Below are positions 10,784-21,387 of a stretch of DNA of 64,000 bases, in pieces. The DNA is taken from NCBI GenBank assembly GCA_016839555.1, contig JAEOUA010000006.1, positions 160,001 through 224,000 on the forward strand. The letters are read 5' to 3'. The stretch comes from Promethearchaeota archaeon. Lineage in GTDB: Archaea > Asgardarchaeota > Lokiarchaeia > Sigyniarchaeales > SOKP01. The notes below the pieces were generated by a model. The model did not search any database, was not told where the DNA came from, and saw nothing but the letters and a program-made list of their open reading frames with translations. The first letter of the stretch is position 1, and each line of letters starts with the position of its first letter. The position numbers and the translations under genes were made by a program.

Positions 10784-10820
10784 TATTTTATAGTATGATT
10801 AATATAATAAATAGTTTGTC

Positions 10821-10842
10821 ATGCTAGGATATGTCCTAGCAT
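10821..10842. promoter_or_regulatory. Palindromic operator candidate in the divergent promoter
   Basis: ATGCTAGGA-TATG-TCCTAGCAT is a perfect 9-bp inverted repeat, GC-rich relative to the intergenic region between 10783(-) and 10934(+). Confidence 0.65.
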
Positions 10843-10933
10843 TTATATCAAGGTCCCTTAAGGTAAATATATTATCGATTAATTATTTTATATTATAAAA
10901 AAAATGATATATAGTCTAAAGTGAGGTTTAAAC

Positions 10934-12670
10934 ATGAATTATGCAAATTTTAGCAAATGGAAATATGAATCTTATTTAATTTCATTAGGATCAAAAAATA
11001 ATAAATTTGAAGAGCGAAAATTAAAATTAAGGTTTAGATTAATTGGAGTTCCTTCTAATCATGCTATTAAGGAATTTTTGGTTGAAACGAGTAACACTTT
11101 TGGTCAAATTAAGAGAAGTGTACAAAGAGAATATAGATTAAATCCCATAATTGATATTAATTTCATTTATAAAGGAAAAGTTTTACGAAATGATTTGAGA
11201 ATTTCTCAAATTGGTGATCCCAAAATAATAGATCCAATAACTATAATATGTATGAATTCAGGCGGAGCAAAAAGAGTTAGAGAAGATGAAGATGAAATTA
11301 AAAAATTAATTCACGTACTTAGTGAAAAAATAATACCATATCGGTTTCGGTGGATTTCGAGACGAGTAGAAAACAAATTTAAGGAACTTAGCGATAATAT
11401 TCCTCTTTTAAAACTAATATTTGCACATAAATTTGGAAGAGAATTAACATCTTTACTTGAAAATTTTTCTCATGGCCATAGATTTGACTTAAGTGATTTT
11501 CTCCATTATAATAATAAGTATGGAAATAATCCACATAAATTATTAGATCTTTTACTGGAGGATTTTATTAAGAATTACAATGAATATAATAGATATAGTG
11601 AATATAAAGATTTTAGGATTCTTATCTTTTCTACTTTACTAGAACTAATTCCATTAATTCCCATTAATGAGGAATCGGTTTTTTATGAAGCACTAAAACT
11701 TATAAATGACATTCAGATTGAAGAAAATGGAGAAATATTTCAAAAATTGTTAGAAATATTAAAAAATTCAAAAATTTCAATAGAAAAGAAGCTATTGACA
11801 TTTAATGTCATTGATAATAAAAATTTTGAAACATTACTTGATGATTTTAAATCATTTATATTAATGAATGATTTAGAATGTCCCTCAGAACTGAAGTTAG
11901 GTATTATAGACAGATTCGAAAGAGAAAATCCAAAATATTCTTCCATATTAGATAAAATAACTCCAAATCTGATTAAACTAATAGAACAAAATATTAATCC
12001 AGAATTAGAAAAAAAAATAAATAAAATTTTATTTAATCAGGGAATGATTTGCGGAAATTGTGGAAGAATTATCAATGAACATAAAAACTTTTCAGAAATT
12101 ACCTTTTGTGAAGTATGTAATAAAACTTTTTGTCAAGAGTGTATTGAAAATGAAGATCTTCTTAATGAATGTGAGTTTTGTAATAGATTTATCTGCAAAA
12201 CCCACGAGGAAGCATATAGCATAATTAATCTTGAAGAGAGAAATGTTGTTTTATGTGATATTTGTTTAGAAGAGAGGAAATATCAAAGTAATCAGATAAT
12301 ATGCAAATTATGCCAAAATAAAATCTTAAAATGCAGTAATGATGAATGTGAAATAAATATCTGTAGGAAACATCAAATTCGATGTGTTATTTGCGATAAA
12401 AGGTATTGTTCGAAATGTAAAGAAAAATTTATGAGAGCGTTTGATTTTGGATTAGCTTGTCATAAATGTGTTGAAACGGAAATTATAGAATGCGAAGAAT
12501 GCGGAATTGAAATAGTCAAAAATTATAATGCATATAGCTGTTCAGATTGTGGAAAATATTTATGCGAAGAACATATTTTCAGTGTACCTGATTGGGGCAA
12601 AAAATACTGTAAGGAATGTCTAGAAAATTGGAAGGAATATACATTTCGAATGCAAGCTTTTGGACATTAA
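10934..12670 (+). CDS. Ubiquitin-like domain (internal GG) fused to a helical region and a Cys/His-rich multi-zinc-finger domain
   Basis: aa ~28-111 is beta-grasp-like (LRFRLIGVP...TFGQIKRSVQREYRLNP..INFIYKGKVL...ITIICMNSGG). From aa 373 to the end there are about 16 CxxC/CxxH pairs. Confidence 0.75.
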   Translation: MNYANFSKWKYESYLISLGSKNNKFEERKLKLRFRLIGVPSNHAIKEFLVETSNTFGQIKRSVQREYRLNPIIDINFIYKGKVLRNDLRISQIGDPKIIDPITIICMNSGGAKRVREDEDEIKKLIHVLSEKIIPYRFRWISRRVENKFKELSDNIPLLKLIFAHKFGRELTSLLENFSHGHRFDLSDFLHYNNKYGNNPHKLLDLLLEDFIKNYNEYNRYSEYKDFRILIFSTLLELIPLIPINEESVFYEALKLINDIQIEENGEIFQKLLEILKNSKISIEKKLLTFNVIDNKNFETLLDDFKSFILMNDLECPSELKLGIIDRFERENPKYSSILDKITPNLIKLIEQNINPELEKKINKILFNQGMICGNCGRIINEHKNFSEITFCEVCNKTFCQECIENEDLLNECEFCNRFICKTHEEAYSIINLEERNVVLCDICLEERKYQSNQIICKLCQNKILKCSNDECEINICRKHQIRCVICDKRYCSKCKEKFMRAFDFGLACHKCVETEIIECEECGIEIVKNYNAYSCSDCGKYLCEEHIFSVPDWGKKYCKECLENWKEYTFRMQAFGH

Positions 12671-12714
12671 AATTTAAATTTATTAAAATTAATAAAAAAA
12701 AAGGTGAAATTATA

Positions 12715-13332
12715 ATGAATGAAGAAAAATATTCCGAGATTAAGGAGGATTTAAAAAATATAATTCATTCCTTAGTTGGATTGTGCCCTGCCTATAATTC
12801 AATAGTACGAATTCTGCGTGATGGTAATGAGAAATTTATAGGCTATGTAAAGGCGGCTTATCCTGAAATCCTAGATCGTGATATATTGTCTGTACTTCTT
12901 GGTTTGTTTGATGTTGAAACAGGAGAAACTTTATTGGTTAAGAGGAATGGAATAGGGGATAATCTAGTGGATTTAATCAATAAAATCGAGGAAAAACTTG
13001 ATAAGAAAGAAATAAGAGATTTAGTATCTGAATCGATGGGAGAGGGTGTTCCAAATCCTGTAAAGGATTATATTGAGGGATGCATTGATGTTCTTAAAAA
13101 GAATGATGAAATTGCTTTAAAATTAATAAAACTAATCGCGGCAGATGGTTGGTATAATTTAAATAATTTAATTGAAAAAGTAAATGAAACATATAAATTA
13201 AATTTTAATAATGAAGAAATTTTCAAACATTTGAAAAATCTAGAAGATTTAGGACTCCTTGAATCTCTGAATGAAAACAGAATCGAAATAATAAAGAAGT
13301 ATTGTGAGCATATTCTTAACCTAACAAAATAG
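12715..13332 (+). CDS. Hypothetical protein with C-terminal winged helix
   Basis: Likely start is ATG 12715 after AAGGTGA. The C-terminal EIFKHLKNLEDLGLLES is wHTH-like. Confidence 0.65.
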   Translation: MNEEKYSEIKEDLKNIIHSLVGLCPAYNSIVRILRDGNEKFIGYVKAAYPEILDRDILSVLLGLFDVETGETLLVKRNGIGDNLVDLINKIEEKLDKKEIRDLVSESMGEGVPNPVKDYIEGCIDVLKKNDEIALKLIKLIAADGWYNLNNLIEKVNETYKLNFNNEEIFKHLKNLEDLGLLESLNENRIEIIKKYCEHILNLTK

Positions 13333-13337
13333 AAGGT

Positions 13338-15314
13338 GTGAAAAAAATCCAAAATCTTAAAAAAAAGCCTATAATAAATAAAAGAAAAAAATTAAATAGA
13401 GAAAAAAGTAATAGATTACAAACTAAAGAGGATAATACAAGTTTAAATGAGGGAAATCAATTAGAAATTAAGCAATTAATACTAAAAAAGCAATCCCCTT
13501 TATTTAAACAGAATGAACATAATTTAATAGAGAAATCGAGAAAACTTAAATACAATAGTTTATCTAATGATAAAATATTTAAAAGGCTCAATAATGAAAA
13601 AAAAGTAGGAGAAGTTTTAAAACCGGTTAAAATTGAATCTGTAAAAAAATTTATTACTAATGATATTGAGGAAAGAAAAGAAGATTTTTTCTTTGAAAAG
13701 AAAAAACCAGAATTTAGAAAATTTAAAAAATCCAATACTAAAACATCTCTTTCAAGATTTATTCATCGAAATCACTTTAAATTTGAAAAATTAAATGAAA
13801 ATATAAATACCCAACTAATTAAATTCCATATGGGAAAAAAATTCTCTTTCAAACCAGAGTTAAAAGTGATAAAAAGAAGTAATATTAATTTAATACCTTC
13901 ATTTCAAGACAGTGAAAAAAATGATAAAAACATTTTAAGGAATAGAGGAATAAGTATGAATAGTGATGATAATACTGGAGTTAGAAAAGAATCAAAAAAG
14001 GAAATAAAAGAAAAATCTAGAAAAAAAGATAATATTAAGAAAAAATCTAATGAATTTGGTGATATCCAAGATAATGGAGAAGATGATTTATTTAATAAAA
14101 TATTTCATAGCAATATTCAAGGTTTTCCAAAAGTTTTGGATTCAGAAGGTCCCTATTTAATATTAGTTGGAGTTAGAAAAAATATTAAAGTCACAGACAC
14201 CCTTCAAATACTTTTAAAAAAGATATATCGAAATGTTGTTGGAGGGAAACCAGATCCAGAAAATATTGGAGATAAAGAGGATTTAAGGGATAATGGTGCC
14301 AAAGCAGGTAGAAATATAATTCTTCTAAATGAAGAATTATTCAAGCAAAAGACCTATGAAAATTATAAGGATCCTTTAAATATTAAAACGAATCTTTTAG
14401 ATGAAGAATGGATTCTAAAAAAATTAGATGAAAATTATAGCCAGAGTTTCGGATTTCTCATACTCGAAGTTCCATTTGATATTCTTGTAAAAGCATATAA
14501 AAGCTTAACCAAAAATATCCGAAAAATTAAACCTTCTCGGATAATATTATTAAGACCATTAAATAAATATACTCTGGAAGAATTGAATTTAACAACTAAC
14601 GAATTAGAAGGAAAAACAGATAAAAAAGATCCTATTACTAAAATAAGGAATTTTTCTAAAGCTCTTCATGGTTTTATTGTACCAAAAGAGGATAAAAAAT
14701 GGCAAAAGGGTAAAACATTTGATGACATTTTTCTAAGCTGTAGAAATGAAGAAGATCTCTTTAAGAAGAAGTTAAAGGAAAAATTTTCAATAAAAGTAAA
14801 TGGTAAAAATATTCCCATCGAAAGACTAGTTAAAATTTCACCAAGAGAGAAACTAAAAGATTTTAAAAAAGAAAGTGAATTACATTTTTTCTTAAAAACC
14901 ATTCTTGTTAGATATTATTATGAAATTAAATGTTTAGAACTTGATCAGGTAAAAACAGAATATGAAACGCCATTAGCAAATGATTCTGATAACGAGATAA
15001 TACCTGATATTGAAATTAAAGAAAAAAATAAAGTTATTGAAGTTGAAACATTATACGGAACGGTTAATCCTATAGGAAAAATCACAGAAACAATAGAAAA
15101 ATATAAAAAAAGAAAATTTTACAAAATAAATGTAATTTTAACCAATTATGACATGTTCTTCTATTACAAGTTCATAAAGAATATAAAGGAATTCTATAAT
15201 AAAGAGGGCTATAAAATTGATTTTATGACTTTCAATTTTTCAAAAAGAAAGATTGATTTAATAGGAATAAATGAATTTAAAAAGAAATTTAATAATGATA
15301 ATGAGTTAAAATAA
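13338..15314 (+). CDS. Large protein with low-complexity basic N-terminus and C-terminal PD-(D/E)xK-like nuclease domain
   Basis: ESELHFFLK...VKTEY...IIPDIEI...VIEVETL (E-x-E variant). GTG start after GAAGG, 5 nt after the upstream stop. Confidence 0.6.
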   Translation: MKKIQNLKKKPIINKRKKLNREKSNRLQTKEDNTSLNEGNQLEIKQLILKKQSPLFKQNEHNLIEKSRKLKYNSLSNDKIFKRLNNEKKVGEVLKPVKIESVKKFITNDIEERKEDFFFEKKKPEFRKFKKSNTKTSLSRFIHRNHFKFEKLNENINTQLIKFHMGKKFSFKPELKVIKRSNINLIPSFQDSEKNDKNILRNRGISMNSDDNTGVRKESKKEIKEKSRKKDNIKKKSNEFGDIQDNGEDDLFNKIFHSNIQGFPKVLDSEGPYLILVGVRKNIKVTDTLQILLKKIYRNVVGGKPDPENIGDKEDLRDNGAKAGRNIILLNEELFKQKTYENYKDPLNIKTNLLDEEWILKKLDENYSQSFGFLILEVPFDILVKAYKSLTKNIRKIKPSRIILLRPLNKYTLEELNLTTNELEGKTDKKDPITKIRNFSKALHGFIVPKEDKKWQKGKTFDDIFLSCRNEEDLFKKKLKEKFSIKVNGKNIPIERLVKISPREKLKDFKKESELHFFLKTILVRYYYEIKCLELDQVKTEYETPLANDSDNEIIPDIEIKEKNKVIEVETLYGTVNPIGKITETIEKYKKRKFYKINVILTNYDMFFYYKFIKNIKEFYNKEGYKIDFMTFNFSKRKIDLIGINEFKKKFNNDNELK

Positions 15315-15316
15315 AA

Positions 15317-16465
15317 GTGATTAGATTGTCTATTGGAAATAACATAGAAAAAATTTTAAATGATAAAGAAAGCGAAATTGTTGAATTTAAAGCATCATTT
15401 AAATGGGATATAGAGAAAAAAGAAATTAATAATAACCTTCTTGATGAAGTATCTGAAACGGTGGCAGCTTTCATGAATTCAAGAGGAGGTAATTTATTTA
15501 TTGGAATTAAGGATAATGGCGAAATCTATGGATTAGCAAATGATATAAAACATTGTTTTCAAAAAAGCGTTGATGTACTACAACAAAATGTCCCTCAATC
15601 AATAAAAGATAATTTAGGAGGAGCTGGTACGAATTATACAATGGATATTGAAAAATATGAAGGTAAAAAAATATGTATAATTAAGGTTAGTCCATCCGAT
15701 GAACCAATTTTTTTTCAAAACCGTGATTTCTATGTTAGAAGAGGAACATCAGACTATAAATTAAATTCTAAAGAAACATATGAATATATCAAAATTCGAT
15801 TTCTAGAATATAAAAAGTTGAGGTATGAGATCCCCAAAGTAATTAATCCTTTTGATGAAAGAATCGATATAATTCTGAAAATCATTAAAAATTATGTTAT
15901 AGAATATTATTTAAGCGGTCTTATAGGAAATTTTGATCGCTCAATTAATAAAGAAATTTTTAATTTAACAAAAATTATAAATAAATTTGATTCTTCTTAT
16001 TTACCAGAATTTATCAGATTACCAAATAATAAACCTAATTATCAATATCTTTCAAATCTTTTTTTTAATTGTAGTGCTAATGATTTAAAGTTAATGTTAA
16101 GTAATAAAGAAATTGAAAAAGACAAAATTAAAAGAAGTATTTATTTACTCTCTGGAGATTTAGCATATATGATTTTTGAAAATTATAAAAAACATTTGGA
16201 AAAGACTGTATTTTCTCTAAAAAAAATACATCGTCTCTTTGTTTTTGAAACAGAAAATAATGAATATTTTAAAGAAAGAATTAGTCTAATTAAATTTAAA
16301 GAAGCTTTAAAAATCCTCAAAGAATATGGATTAATAAGTCTTTATGGTGAGGAATATAAAGGAAATAGCTCAGAAACGGAATTACATATATTAGATAAGT
16401 TAAGATTAAAGGATTATGTACGGCAGAGTTCGATTTCTTTCCTAATTAACAAAAAGCGAGATTAA
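15317..16465 (+). CDS. Schlafen/AlbA_2-domain protein with C-terminal extension
   Basis: ESEIVEFKAS, VAAFMNSRGGNLFIGIKDNG, FYVRRGTS; starts 2 nt after the upstream stop. Confidence 0.85.
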   Translation: MIRLSIGNNIEKILNDKESEIVEFKASFKWDIEKKEINNNLLDEVSETVAAFMNSRGGNLFIGIKDNGEIYGLANDIKHCFQKSVDVLQQNVPQSIKDNLGGAGTNYTMDIEKYEGKKICIIKVSPSDEPIFFQNRDFYVRRGTSDYKLNSKETYEYIKIRFLEYKKLRYEIPKVINPFDERIDIILKIIKNYVIEYYLSGLIGNFDRSINKEIFNLTKIINKFDSSYLPEFIRLPNNKPNYQYLSNLFFNCSANDLKLMLSNKEIEKDKIKRSIYLLSGDLAYMIFENYKKHLEKTVFSLKKIHRLFVFETENNEYFKERISLIKFKEALKILKEYGLISLYGEEYKGNSSETELHILDKLRLKDYVRQSSISFLINKKRD

Positions 16466-16569: not shown

Positions 16570-19500
16570 TTAAGTATGGTATCGAAATTTTATCCTTAAT
16601 TTATCTTTATTCATATAAAAATTCAATTCTTTCTCATTATTGCAATAATCAAGCGCAAATCGCCGAATTTTTGCCGCCGTTTGCATTAATTCTTTATCAT
16701 TGGGAATGTAAGTCAAGAAATTCTTGCTACAAATCAGAATGAATTTCGCCCGCGCCCGTGAGCTCAGCACATTGAACCGATTCAAATTGTAAATGAACTC
16801 CTCCTCGCTTAAAAGTTGATCTTGAGCGGAAATGCCAATAGAAGTGATAATGAAATCCCGAGCGGAGCCTTGAAATTTTTCCACCGAGTAAATAGTCTTT
16901 TTCAGCAATTCCATTAATTCTCGTTCCCCAAGCGCGTTGAGGTCATAATCATTCAAAATTTGATGAAGTTGTCTGATAATTAAGCGTCCTTGAGCATTAT
17001 GAGGCGCCACCACACCGAGTTTCTCCGTCCAAAACATTCGCTGAATATTCCTTAATTCTTTTTCAAAAGCTTTCGATTTTTCCGGTATATTCATTAAATA
17101 ATACCCCAAAACCAGTTGAATAACGATATAAGCCTCGAGAGGACTAACTGCAGTTTCATATTTGTTCTGATGGATAATAGATTCCACAGCAATTCCCTTA
17201 TCCAATACATCAAGCACCCAGCTCTCTATTTTGGGCTCTTTCCCAGCAGCGATCCAATCTTGAAGGCGGTGAAAATCGCCCTCAATCGTTTTATCTTTAT
17301 TCGTTAATGGCGCAATATCGCGTTCATATATGTCCATATAATTTGTAAAGTCCACGATGTCTTGATGGCTTCTATAGTTGATTTGTAATTGGTCGTTAGG
17401 GATGCGATGATTATCCGCATAAAAACCAAAGAGATTATCCAGAATGGGCTCAAGTTTTTTCGGCGGAAGGACTTGCTGTACAGGAGGTAATTGATTTTGG
17501 TCGCCCACAATTACTAATTTAGTTAACTCATCAACATCGGGGCTTCTTTTAGTTTCTTTAGAGACTAAATATAATTCATTTAATTTCTCGATATCAGAAA
17601 TTTGTTGACCAGAGGCCGCCGATAAATCTTTAGACATAATTTCGACACCGAAATTTTTAACATATAGAAGTGCAGACATAATCTGATTAACTGGCACTTG
17701 CGAGCTTTCATCTACAACAATAAGGTCAAATGCAAATCCCAAATTAATAAAGCTTAGTTTACCATATCTCTTCTTTTTTAAATCAAACAATTGATGCGCA
17801 TTGGTAAAAAGGATGAGATTTTCATTATGTGGCGCTAAGATATCATAAGATTTTTTATCGCTTTCATGAGTAATTTCCGCGAATACCTTAGCTCCAGCAC
17901 CATTTATTTGTCTCATCTCTAGAGTTTTTTTATCTTTAAAATACGCATCATAAAGCGTTTTTGAACCGTGTAAGGAGGGTGGTTCTTGATCTCTGGAGTG
18001 AAGAAAGACGAGTTGAGCCTTCGCAGCTTCGGTTAAATTTCCCGTATTGTCTAAACTATTAAAAATCGTTTCAAAGACTACCCGAAGAGCTGCATAAGAA
18101 AACGCCATAACCAGCACTTTCACGGGCCCTCTATTTTTTTCCTTTTGTCTATGAATATATTCATCGATAAGCATAGCAATGGTTTGGGTTTTTCCGGTTC
18201 CGGGAGGCCCTTGAATCCCATAGATGGTATACTTCATTGCGTTAAGGATGGCTTGTTCTTGGGAGGCATCGGGAGGTGGAGAAATCGGTGTTAATAATTT
18301 TTTAGGAGTATAAGAATAGGAGGGTAGCAGATTCGGGGCATAGAGATAGACCTCGGGCAGCCTTCCTTCGTAGGGGAACGGATCTGGGTACTCCAAGGCA
18401 GTCTTTTGAGTCATATTCCATTTAAACGCCAATATTTTTCCCAGCCAAGATTCTCCAAAATTTTCTCTTAATAGCAATTTTTCTAATCTTTGAGCCCACG
18501 GATTTGATTCATAAGAATACAAATAAAAAGTATCATCAATAAGAATTCGCTCCCCAAGTTGTACTAAAGCTTGCCTTTTGTTTCGAAGATCTATTATTTT
18601 TTGAGAAATTTTATTAACTAAGGAGTAATCTTGAAGATAAGGCGACTGTTCCTCGAGCTCCTGGATATAATTATCCAACAAATCAGTACTCCAGGTTTGA
18701 GTTCTAACCTGCCAGTGATTATTATCCCAATTCAAATCTTCAATCACAATTCTCCATTTATAATTTTTATAGCTGGGAGCATCTCGTAACATTTCTGGTA
18801 CGCAGATTACCCATGCTCCCTCATCAATTTTCACATTTGAAGACATTCCACCAAGTTCAAACTCATAAAAATACCCATTATATCCCCCGTAGCTACCACT
18901 TCCACTTGTCTCAGGAATCTGCCAGATACCATTGATTTTGGCCGATTTTAATTTTCCTACACCATAAGTGGGATACATACATCGAATGTTATCAAGTTCA
19001 AACTCATTATAGGCAGTCGTATAATGTTCAAATAAATACCAAATTTGCGCAATATTGTGATATGATTCAGGTAATTCATAATCGAAAAAATCTTCCATCG
19101 CCCGTGGCTTATTATATCCCAAAAGATAAGATTTCCCATGCTGTTGAAAAACTTGCCTTAACTTATCAAGCGTTCGCACTTTTTTTATCATCTGTTTCTT
19201 TAATTCGCTGAGAAGTGTTGCCTTTTTTTGGCCGTCATTATATAAGTAGCGATACCATTGCTGGAAATCAATAAAATTGAAATGGCGGTTCCAGAAAACC
19301 TCGTAGAAGATTTGCTCTTTATACCCAAATATGGGTTGATATTTTGGTATTTTAGATAGATATTTCGCCAGTTCATGCCAAGTATAATTAATAATCAAAG
19401 GAAAACTCATGGTGGTTTCGGCAAATGCTCTGAGATTAAAGAACTTCTTATGATGATAAGGATGCTTTACGTTCGATTCCGAGGGATTGAACCATCGAAG

Positions 19501-21387
19501 GATATATAATGTCTTTCTGCGTAGCGCAGGACTATCATTTAAGTAATCCAAATTTCGCTCCAGAAATTCTTCTAAATATTCTATTTGTTCTTGAGACCAA
19601 TAATAAATGGCACAATTGAGAGATTTCCCGTCCACTTCGGTGAACCATTCCAAATTTTGGATAAAGATCAGTATTGCATATAAGAGCGAAATTACTTCTT
19701 CTGAGAATTTATTCTCATCCTCTTGAGTAAGTCCTGTATTGACAAGAGAAAAATCTAGTTCAAGAGTACTATAATGCATTTTTCCGCCACTAGAAGCCTT
19801 TTTCAACTGTAGCCAGGGACGATCCTTATTTTTATGCATTTTAAATAGAAATGTCAGAGCAGAAGCAAATCTATTGAGTGAATGTATGACCCGCTTTTCT
19901 ACATTATCCTCTTCAATCCCATCGATGTTGAATTGAGTTAATATCTGATTCTGTATATAGTCCAAGTTATTCGTATCTTCAAAAAATTTATTCCATAGAG
20001 TCCACCATCTCACGAATTTATCATATTGGTTCAAATAATCTGAAACAAAACAGTTTAAATTAAAGGATACCGCGCAGACAACATCGTGGATGGGATCCGT
20101 TTCAAAGTCGAGGATTAAAGAGATCGGGCTATATTTTGGGATGGATATAGAATAAATTTCTCCAATCTTTGGGCTGAGAGGTTTATTTTCTAAGAGCGCC
20201 TGTGCTCGTTGTTTTAGAAAAGGTTTTTCCGCATAGAGAGGGGTGGGAACAATATTTTTTGGGTGTGCATCGATTTTATCAGCCACATCTTTAATAGTCT
20301 CATATATAGGGGCTTGACAATCTTTTAATTGTTCTGAAATAGTTTTTGAAGTATAAGGGATCAGTTGGAGGTCCCATTGGTCTCGAGGATAACAGTCATC
20401 GCATTTCAGCGTTTTTTTACAATCTTCTAAATAGGGGCATCTGGCGCAGATTGATTGGAGATTAAGCGGAATCTCCTCTATACTGCACGGAATTTCCTCT
20501 TTAAATTCCCGGAGTTTATTGGAAAGCGACTCATACAGAATAATGGTGTCTTTAAACGGCATCTTCACGATTTTTCGGCGGATCTCAGAGATACCGAGTT
20601 TCATTTGCTTAACTTTAGTATATCGGGGAAAAATGCCATTTTCATCAACGCGTACGAAAAATTTATCATCTAACCCGTGAATGTGTAAGAAATGATTGAA
20701 GGCCATAAAATAAAAGAGAATTTCGAAAAAATACTTCTTTCCGATACTATCCGGCCGAGACAGCTTGACATCGATGATTGATATGCCGACTCTTGTATCC
20801 AACTCTTTTTCTGGTACTTCTCTGATGGTACCGTCAGCCAATAACTCTCTAATTTGTTCTTTTTCCTTGAACTTTACCTTCGAAAATCTGGTTGCTTCTA
20901 CTTTTTTATTTCCTATTAATAAAAGGTCTGGTCGAAGCGTTTCCGAATAATCAGTAGGTATTTCTTCGCCAGGAGAAAGTTGAAAAAATTCCCAGATAAA
21001 TTGCTCGGGTGTCTCAAAATCATATTCAATAAGACATAATTCTTGGTCTGTGCCATCAACTATTATTTTTTCATATAGCTTTATAAAGAAATCAGGTGTT
21101 AACTGTGGCCCTTTTAAAACATCCCAAGGAGCTTTCTGGAGCACTTTATTCTTATTATTTGGAAAGATAGTATCATAAACTTCATTCTCGTAATTTCTAC
21201 CTAGTTTGATAATGAGTGCGCCTATTTTTTCACGCTCCAAAGGTTCAACTTCGCGATATGGGTGAATCCAAGAGCTATCATTCTTTCCAAGATTCAGAAA
21301 GAGCTGCCGTTCGCAGTTAGATTCCAAATAATCTCCGAGATTTTGCTTATTCAAATGATTTTTAGTCATCTGATATGATAATATCAA
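16570..21387 (-). CDS. Fe-S RecB/Cas4-like nuclease + RNase H-like domain + SF1B (Dna2/UPF1-like) helicase
   Basis: SNCERQL plus CARCPYLEDC (4-Cys staple); RPDLL, IDVKL, EILFY; ILDFETDP; QGPPGTGKT, DESSQ, VGDQNQLPP, NYRSH, VAPHNAQ, SVEKFQG, RFNVLSSRAR. The start may be ATG 21369. Confidence 0.88.
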   Translation of the reverse strand: MILSYQMTKNHLNKQNLGDYLESNCERQLFLNLGKNDSSWIHPYREVEPLEREKIGALIIKLGRNYENEVYDTIFPNNKNKVLQKAPWDVLKGPQLTPDFFIKLYEKIIVDGTDQELCLIEYDFETPEQFIWEFFQLSPGEEIPTDYSETLRPDLLLIGNKKVEATRFSKVKFKEKEQIRELLADGTIREVPEKELDTRVGISIIDVKLSRPDSIGKKYFFEILFYFMAFNHFLHIHGLDDKFFVRVDENGIFPRYTKVKQMKLGISEIRRKIVKMPFKDTIILYESLSNKLREFKEEIPCSIEEIPLNLQSICARCPYLEDCKKTLKCDDCYPRDQWDLQLIPYTSKTISEQLKDCQAPIYETIKDVADKIDAHPKNIVPTPLYAEKPFLKQRAQALLENKPLSPKIGEIYSISIPKYSPISLILDFETDPIHDVVCAVSFNLNCFVSDYLNQYDKFVRWWTLWNKFFEDTNNLDYIQNQILTQFNIDGIEEDNVEKRVIHSLNRFASALTFLFKMHKNKDRPWLQLKKASSGGKMHYSTLELDFSLVNTGLTQEDENKFSEEVISLLYAILIFIQNLEWFTEVDGKSLNCAIYYWSQEQIEYLEEFLERNLDYLNDSPALRRKTLYILRWFNPSESNVKHPYHHKKFFNLRAFAETTMSFPLIINYTWHELAKYLSKIPKYQPIFGYKEQIFYEVFWNRHFNFIDFQQWYRYLYNDGQKKATLLSELKKQMIKKVRTLDKLRQVFQQHGKSYLLGYNKPRAMEDFFDYELPESYHNIAQIWYLFEHYTTAYNEFELDNIRCMYPTYGVGKLKSAKINGIWQIPETSGSGSYGGYNGYFYEFELGGMSSNVKIDEGAWVICVPEMLRDAPSYKNYKWRIVIEDLNWDNNHWQVRTQTWSTDLLDNYIQELEEQSPYLQDYSLVNKISQKIIDLRNKRQALVQLGERILIDDTFYLYSYESNPWAQRLEKLLLRENFGESWLGKILAFKWNMTQKTALEYPDPFPYEGRLPEVYLYAPNLLPSYSYTPKKLLTPISPPPDASQEQAILNAMKYTIYGIQGPPGTGKTQTIAMLIDEYIHRQKEKNRGPVKVLVMAFSYAALRVVFETIFNSLDNTGNLTEAAKAQLVFLHSRDQEPPSLHGSKTLYDAYFKDKKTLEMRQINGAGAKVFAEITHESDKKSYDILAPHNENLILFTNAHQLFDLKKKRYGKLSFINLGFAFDLIVVDESSQVPVNQIMSALLYVKNFGVEIMSKDLSAASGQQISDIEKLNELYLVSKETKRSPDVDELTKLVIVGDQNQLPPVQQVLPPKKLEPILDNLFGFYADNHRIPNDQLQINYRSHQDIVDFTNYMDIYERDIAPLTNKDKTIEGDFHRLQDWIAAGKEPKIESWVLDVLDKGIAVESIIHQNKYETAVSPLEAYIVIQLVLGYYLMNIPEKSKAFEKELRNIQRMFWTEKLGVVAPHNAQGRLIIRQLHQILNDYDLNALGERELMELLKKTIYSVEKFQGSARDFIITSIGISAQDQLLSEEEFIYNLNRFNVLSSRARAKFILICSKNFLTYIPNDKELMQTAAKIRRFALDYCNNEKELNFYMNKDKLRIKFRYHT

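Follow-up and report, generated by a model that had tools for sequence, protein, structure and literature searches.

A conserved partner-nuclease gene pair, a prokaryotic Schlafen gene and a ubiquitin-Gly-Gly fusion gene lie head to tail in a putative defence island of an Asgard archaeon

In a stretch of 64,000 nucleotides (nt) of DNA from a Promethearchaeota archaeon (GenBank contig JAEOUA010000006.1, positions 160,001 to 224,000; the whole stretch is called the window here), four genes follow one another on the forward strand: gene 1 (10934-12670, 578 amino acids (aa)), gene 2 (12715-13332, 205 aa), gene 3 (13338-15314, 658 aa) and gene 4 (15317-16465, 382 aa). A preliminary description of this DNA had interpreted them as one candidate four-gene defence system consisting of a ubiquitin-like (Ubl) zinc-finger protein, a winged helix-turn-helix (wHTH) protein, a nuclease and a Schlafen protein. 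Our analysis points to three separately inherited defence modules that are packed head to tail, a reading to which we assign a probability of roughly 0.6. As judged by their distribution, only genes 2 and 3 of the four form a conserved unit. From the earlier proposal we keep the defence setting and the pair of nuclease-type effectors, which are supported, but not the single four-gene unit.

The evidence comes mainly from the surroundings of gene 3 relatives. We collected 57 such loci, drawing on metagenomes as well as on Asgard and species-representative genomes, called their open reading frames (ORFs) and searched these with custom hidden Markov models (HMMs). Among the non-fused homologues of 486-667 aa that had an upstream gene within the locus, 32 of 33 were directly preceded on the same strand by a gene of the partner family to which gene 2 belongs. 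The spacing of partner and nuclease genes was between -35 and +6 nt in most loci and reached 56 and 196 nt in outliers; in the single exception to adjacency a 90-aa ORF intervenes. Fused gene 3 forms of about 1400 aa (n = 10) had no partner gene upstream. The partner itself occurs in two forms, one of about 210 aa, which resembles gene 2, and one of about 400 aa, to the C-terminal half of which gene 2 is homologous (hhalign probability 96.5%, E 1e-9). The pair was found in Asgard archaea, Methanobacteriota, four haloarchaeal genera, Altiarchaeota, Methanohalarchaeum and one bacterial metagenome-assembled genome (MAG), a range that includes halophilic, methanogen-related and hot-spring archaea. 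Within Asgard archaea the gene 3 family is patchy, being present in eight of 400 genomes and in none of six congeners. Homologues of gene 1 or gene 4 were not seen beside gene 3 relatives in any of the approximately 57 loci, nor did homologues of genes 1 to 3 occur beside gene 4 relatives in any gene 4 locus. Co-occurrence, which the preliminary description had named as a check on its proposal, therefore holds for genes 2 and 3 and fails for genes 1 and 4.

We weighed three ways in which the four genes could be joined more closely. All of them could form one lineage-specific system in which the Ubl-zinc-finger protein senses or regulates, gene 2 acts as an adaptor, and a DNase and a Schlafen RNase serve as dual effectors. 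Their short gaps, single orientation and similar GC content speak for this, as does the single upstream intergenic region with its palindrome, and multi-effector defence loci are known (PMC12839542). We nevertheless regard such a system as improbable because genes 1 and 4 never accompany the pair, because the gene 4 homologue stands alone and because prokaryotic Schlafen (pSlfn) proteins work as single genes (PMC13056530). A three-gene system, with gene 1 in place of the 400-aa partner form termed "A" and with gene 4 independent, ranks just ahead of it and is still quite unlikely. In two loci (L039 and L101) the genes for A, partner and nuclease follow each other in this order and overlap, and gene 1 occupies the position of A, 44 nt upstream of gene 2. 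However, no similarity was seen between gene 1 and the A family (hhalign probability 0.2%, HMM E-value 1.8), a result that rules gene 1 out as a homologue of A, and we know of no second example of such an arrangement. The least probable of the readings, in our view, is that gene 1 was exchanged into the partner-nuclease system as its front end, where release or exposure of an Asgard ubiquitin at Gly-Gly would couple ubiquitin-type signalling to a nuclease immune effector. If this were true, the locus would represent an archaeal forerunner of ubiquitin-controlled antiviral immunity. We prefer three separate modules since genes 1 and 4 never accompany the pair and gene 1 is unrelated to the A partner. 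Several points weigh against this preference. Near-duplicates from shared hot-spring and brine metagenomes make up many of the gene 3 loci, so that the figure of 32 in 33 overstates the independent support. The co-occurrence sample for gene 1 leaves out the neighbourhood of its one full-length relative, MBD3215847.1. Counts of defence neighbours, given below, are raw numbers with no background comparison, and the structural Z-scores of 5-6.3 obtained for gene 3 are middling. Finally, gaps of 2-5 nt and a shared orientation are compatible with one transcript; with spacing this tight, the genes may be functionally coupled in this lineage.

A different alternative concerns the role of the gene 2-3 pair, which could be a selfish addiction or restriction-like cassette of mobile elements, composed of a toxin nuclease and a DNA-binding antitoxin or controller, rather than an antiviral system. 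It would fit such a cassette that a small upstream gene of DNA-binding type overlaps the nuclease gene, that integrase genes adjoin some copies and that the distribution is patchy. On the other hand, a search of 2.9 million viral contigs with the pattern of the gene 3 family found no member, and the pair lies repeatedly within bacteriophage exclusion (BREX) loci and other defence neighbourhoods. We consider a purely selfish role unlikely, albeit the least unlikely of the alternatives, and selfish and antiviral roles are not mutually exclusive. The 125 neighbour proteins of the pair include HamA and HamB of the Hachiman system, a cyclase of the type found in cyclic-oligonucleotide-based antiphage signalling systems (CBASS), GmrSD, two NurA/HerA pairs, five to seven AAA_5/mad8-like ATPases, a staphylococcal-type nuclease and integrases. 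Two haloarchaea, Haloarcula argentinensis and Halorubrum persicum, have the pair between brxC and pglX. The order in Haloarcula argentinensis is BrxB, a BrxC-sized gene, two small genes, partner, nuclease, PglX and PglZ, and it is the same in Halorubrum persicum. The haloarchaeal clusters contain genuine BrxA and BrxB elsewhere, for which reason we rejected the possibility that genes 2 and 3 are diverged BrxA and BrxB at these loci. The BREX regions that enclose the pair are L107 1028-16089 and L105 2343-13183, and in L107 the partner is split into ORFs of 135 and 91 aa. Auxiliary PD-(D/E)xK effectors embedded in BREX loci have recently been described (PMC12839542), and the position of the pair between brxC and pglX in the two haloarchaea resembles theirs. 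In contrast, no BREX genes were present among the window ORFs scanned, and most copies of the pair lie outside BREX. As far as it was searched, the text of PMC12839542 does not name the gene 3 family.

The pair is not covered by Pfam, NCBIfam or PADLOC, as judged for PADLOC from the genes of the window. In this PADLOC scan, genes 1, 3 and 4 matched neither Shedu nor any other system model, and gene 2 matched PDC-S47 at E 0.002 only; the expectation that no full match to a known system would be found was thus confirmed with PADLOC and NCBIfam. The core of gene 2 contains the conserved motifs P-x-x-N and AYPE[LI]. Its description as a wHTH protein found slender backing in the profile of its family, the C-terminal 70 residues of which match RosR, PadR and FadR winged helices at E ~0.1. 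A look-alike search of the ESM Atlas with gene 2 gave sub-threshold leads. Larger arrangements of the pair were observed in six loci from hot-spring metagenomes (L063, L066, L067, L073, L076 and L079), where two tandem partner-nuclease pairs are followed by an ATPase of about 356 aa that is AAA_5/mad8-like and by a 283-aa gene. These loci may represent a larger variant of the system. At the closest Asgard gene 3 homologue (L037 4224-6065), a frame of 613 codons opens 16 nt before the stop of the partner gene and has no ATG, GTG or TTG in its first 268 codons, which may indicate a non-canonical start or coupled genes. One of the fused gene 3 forms (L033 7517-14706 in genome G197; 1388 aa) is followed by a NurA-domain gene and a probable HerA gene.

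Gene 3 starts with GTG and encodes three regions. Residues 1-240 (13338-14057, forward strand) are of low complexity, with 22% lysine and an isoelectric point of 10.3; they are probably disordered, align loosely to the homologue P0157 and lie outside the folded part. Word-based homology searches with gene 3 returned the protein itself or weak matches only, because the low-complexity region saturated them, and exhaustive HMMER searches were required. Using residues 241-658, these yielded 164 relatives. A Pfam search of 40 of the relatives, fused forms of 1000-1400 aa included, detected no families, and gene 3 itself likewise had none. A single-sequence fold of gene 3 was unusable (predicted local distance difference test score (pLDDT) 37). 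In contrast, an AlphaFold model from an alignment of 99 sequences reached a pLDDT of 86.6 and a predicted template modelling score of 0.88, and an unfiltered structural search (VIA) divided it into two domains. The first is an alpha/beta domain (residues ~250-412, 14085-14573) with a P-loop/AAA-like fold; it matched the AAA+-like domain of Sir3, MutS, dynein AAA modules and Avs5 (VIA Z 5-6.3). A Walker A sequence was not found in the family consensus, and the conserved positions of this domain are mostly glycine and proline.

The C-terminal domain of gene 3 (residues ~484-650, 14787-15287) matched XisH (Z 6.3), YaeQ (6.2), BstEII (5.7), Can2 (5.6) and Card1 (5.3) over 105-124 residues, and also NucS and NucC, the whole set giving Z-scores of 4.7-6.3. 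H516, K520, E541, D557, E568 and E570, all located in this domain, are invariant or nearly so among 40-99 homologues. D557 and E568-x-E570, which are of catalytic type, are invariant; the lysine is off the canonical ExK position and would be supplied from the preceding helix, an unusual arrangement. BamHI offers a precedent for D...ExE combined with a lysine from a preceding helix. Because the Z-scores are middling, the assignment rests jointly on fold, motif and family conservation. On the basis of the model, the C-terminal domain of gene 3 is a member of the PD-(D/E)xK superfamily with a restriction-endonuclease-like fold, and we predict that it is a nuclease, in agreement with the PD-(D/E)xK-like domain noted earlier from the sequence. 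A Foldseek search of gene 3 against the PDB returned nothing at E <= 0.001, and the ESM Atlas look-alike search, which uses a protein language model, returned unnamed archaeal clusters only. The arrangement of an alpha/beta domain followed by a domain of restriction-endonuclease fold is shared with Card1 and Can2, nucleases of type III CRISPR systems that combine CARF with PD-(D/E)xK and whose nuclease domains matched at Z 5.3-5.6. However, the best matches of the N-terminal domain of gene 3 are P-loop/AAA folds rather than CARF, sequence similarity to Card1 and Can2 is absent, the nuclease has an obligatory separate partner gene, and no cas genes were present among the scanned neighbours.

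Gene 4, which also starts with GTG, falls by its sequence within the published definition of a prokaryotic Schlafen protein, namely PF04326 plus an Ex4ExK motif. Its AlbA_2 domain (residues 18-150, 15368-15766) scored 76.1 bits with PF04326 against a cut-off of 25.3 (E 4e-21), and its ESEIVEFK motif (E18, E23, K25) aligned with PES-QSI-EFK of human SLFN11, so that the intact Schlafen motif reported in the preliminary description could be substantiated. In SLFN11, E209, E214 and K216 are essential (PMC9482658), and an Ex4(E/D)xK motif defines the catalytic site of pSlfn proteins (PMC13056530). The latter have been described as effector-sensor fusions, 97% of them being fused to putative sensor domains, and two single-gene constructs shielded E. 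coli from phages, one of them via phage-triggered tRNA cleavage (PMC13056530, 2026). With RorSlfn5 and EcoSlfn7 from that work gene 4 shares PF04326, Ex4ExK, a fused extra domain and a location in a defence island. It differs in being archaeal, in being known from its sequence and in its C-terminal domain (residues ~166-382, 15812-16462). This domain of 215 residues had no Pfam match, and a PDB sequence search with its profile gave nothing significant, whereas it is common to Asgard TIR and LRR proteins. In other Asgard genomes it is fused to a TIR domain (L095 6297-7787), an LRR array (L099 4591-7995), a weakly nucleoside-deoxyribosyltransferase-like domain (L097 6827-7972) and a NikA-like domain (L098 6564-7337); given this recurrence with TIR, LRR and other N-terminal domains, it behaves like an interchangeable part of immune-type proteins. 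Schlafen domains are spread over 36 of 400 Asgard genomes in many architectures, and the sole full-length homologue of gene 4 (G211, 40% identity) is flanked by genes on the opposite strand. This full-length homologue (L094 1989-3377), annotated as Odinarchaeota, has in addition a Cys-rich zinc-ribbon tail, some 70 residues long, at its C-terminus.

Gene 1 encodes, by homology, a true ubiquitin-family domain that ends in Gly-Gly and is fused in frame to a longer protein. The Ubl domain (residues 29-111, 11018-11266) terminates at G110-G111, beyond which the chain continues with a helical region that has no counterpart in Pfam and then a zinc-finger array of 209 residues (370-578, 12041-12667) with 12 CxxC motifs and 29 cysteines. 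PF00240 scored a sub-threshold 18 bits on gene 1 itself. Its Ubl domain is, however, 42-52% identical to stand-alone Asgard ubiquitin-family proteins of 83-86 aa, which are present in 136 of 400 Asgard genomes, pass the Pfam cut-off at 41.5 bits and terminate at the same Gly-Gly or one residue beyond it. This identity and the 12 CxxC motifs bear out the earlier view of gene 1 as a Ubl-zinc-finger protein. Among 5.8 billion proteins a single full-length relative was detected, MBD3215847.1 (P0003) from a Lokiarchaeota MAG (49% identity), which retains the Ubl domain, the Gly-Gly and all cysteines. It carries ParB_N and ParB HTH domains inserted between Ubl and helical region. Scans of the genome and viral collections with the gene 1 alignment found nothing.

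In the eukaryotic precursors ubiquitin-eL40 and ubiquitin-eS31, too, a ubiquitin with a terminal Gly-Gly is followed in frame by a zinc-binding protein. Gene 1 shares this layout; its fused part, in contrast, comprises 467 aa with about six predicted zinc sites and is not ribosomal, and gene 1 is known from its sequence. With the bacterial Bil system (Ubl-E1-E2-DUB) it has in common a Gly-Gly ubiquitin-like protein in a defence neighbourhood. The analogy to Bil and ISG15 that had been drawn for it fails, however, because gene 1 has no E1, E2 or JAB gene nearby, none being detected when 17 ORFs located from 1.4 to 32.6 kb were scanned with Pfam, and its Ubl domain differs from that of Bil in being an N-terminal fusion.

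The four genes are co-directional and separated by 44, 5 and 2 nt, which agrees with the original description and was confirmed by the ORF coordinates. These gaps follow from a start of gene 2 at ATG 12715, the position at which its homologues begin; this favours 12715 over ATG 12616, and a gene 2 read from 12616 would run into gene 1. Shine-Dalgarno-like GGTG or GAGGT sequences precede genes 1, 2 and 3. An intergenic region of 150 bp (10784-10933), common to gene 1 and a divergent TPR gene, contains GAGGT 9 nt before the ATG of gene 1. Between the TPR gene and gene 1 it also holds a perfect 9-bp inverted repeat at 10821-10842 (ATGCTAGGA, a 4-nt spacer and TCCTAGCAT), which is a possible operator.

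The surroundings are best explained if the locus belongs to a defence island of an Asgard archaeon with low GC content. Overall, the window has a very high AT content, and genes 1 to 4 have GC contents of 24-29%. Their neighbours include genes for two DNA methylases, for a TdeIII restriction enzyme and for a TPR protein of 1066 aa, and a superfamily 1 helicase of 1605 aa in the window matches the MkoA, Hhe and ProA models. Gene 4 lies within 10 kb of defence genes, with the TdeIII gene 8 kb upstream and the MkoA/Hhe-like helicase gene 0.1 kb downstream. The methylases, TdeIII and the MkoA-like helicase lend support to the defence context first proposed. The downstream helicase-nuclease gene (16570-21387) is in the opposite orientation, has a GC content of 37% compared with 24-29% in its neighbours, and is the only large part of the 1-38 kb region that matches the DNA of a congener (G001, 67-68% identity). 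In DNA-level comparisons with six congeners the genomes were too divergent for the borders of the island to be defined. Gene 4 and the body of gene 1, like gene 3, were not found in any of these same-genus genomes, and the names of the closest homologues, which are Lokiarchaeota, Promethearchaeota and Helarchaeota, fit an Asgard archaeon.

From the gene order, the domain assignments, the conservation of the pair and its defence neighbourhoods we infer the following activities and regulation. Gene 2, with its AYPEL-motif core and a C-terminus that probably binds DNA, would be translationally coupled to the nuclease gene 3. The latter would combine a basic disordered tail, a P-loop-like domain that lacks Walker A and probably serves in regulation or assembly, and a PD-(D/E)xK catalytic domain. 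The partner may hold or target the nuclease, and DNA cleavage may then be released by invading DNA or by a signal of infection. Gene 4 is probably self-contained; by analogy to its bacterial relatives, its C-terminal domain would sense a cue, upon which the Ex4ExK site would cleave tRNA. Gene 1 would be a separate ubiquitin-GG fusion module with one known relative.

Each of the three proposed modules has its own significance. The ubiquitin-GG fusion of gene 1 is a rare archaeal parallel to the ubiquitin precursor genes of eukaryotes. Gene 4 extends to Asgard archaea the range of the Schlafen defence family, which was established only recently, and the fact that TIR and LRR proteins share its C-terminal module is relevant to how immune domain combinations arose in eukaryotes. 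The gene 2-3 pair is a cassette widespread in archaea; its very strong synteny and its repeated occurrence in defence and BREX contexts make it a concrete candidate for an archaeal defence family that would be new, and the invariant residues of gene 3 permit the design of point mutants.

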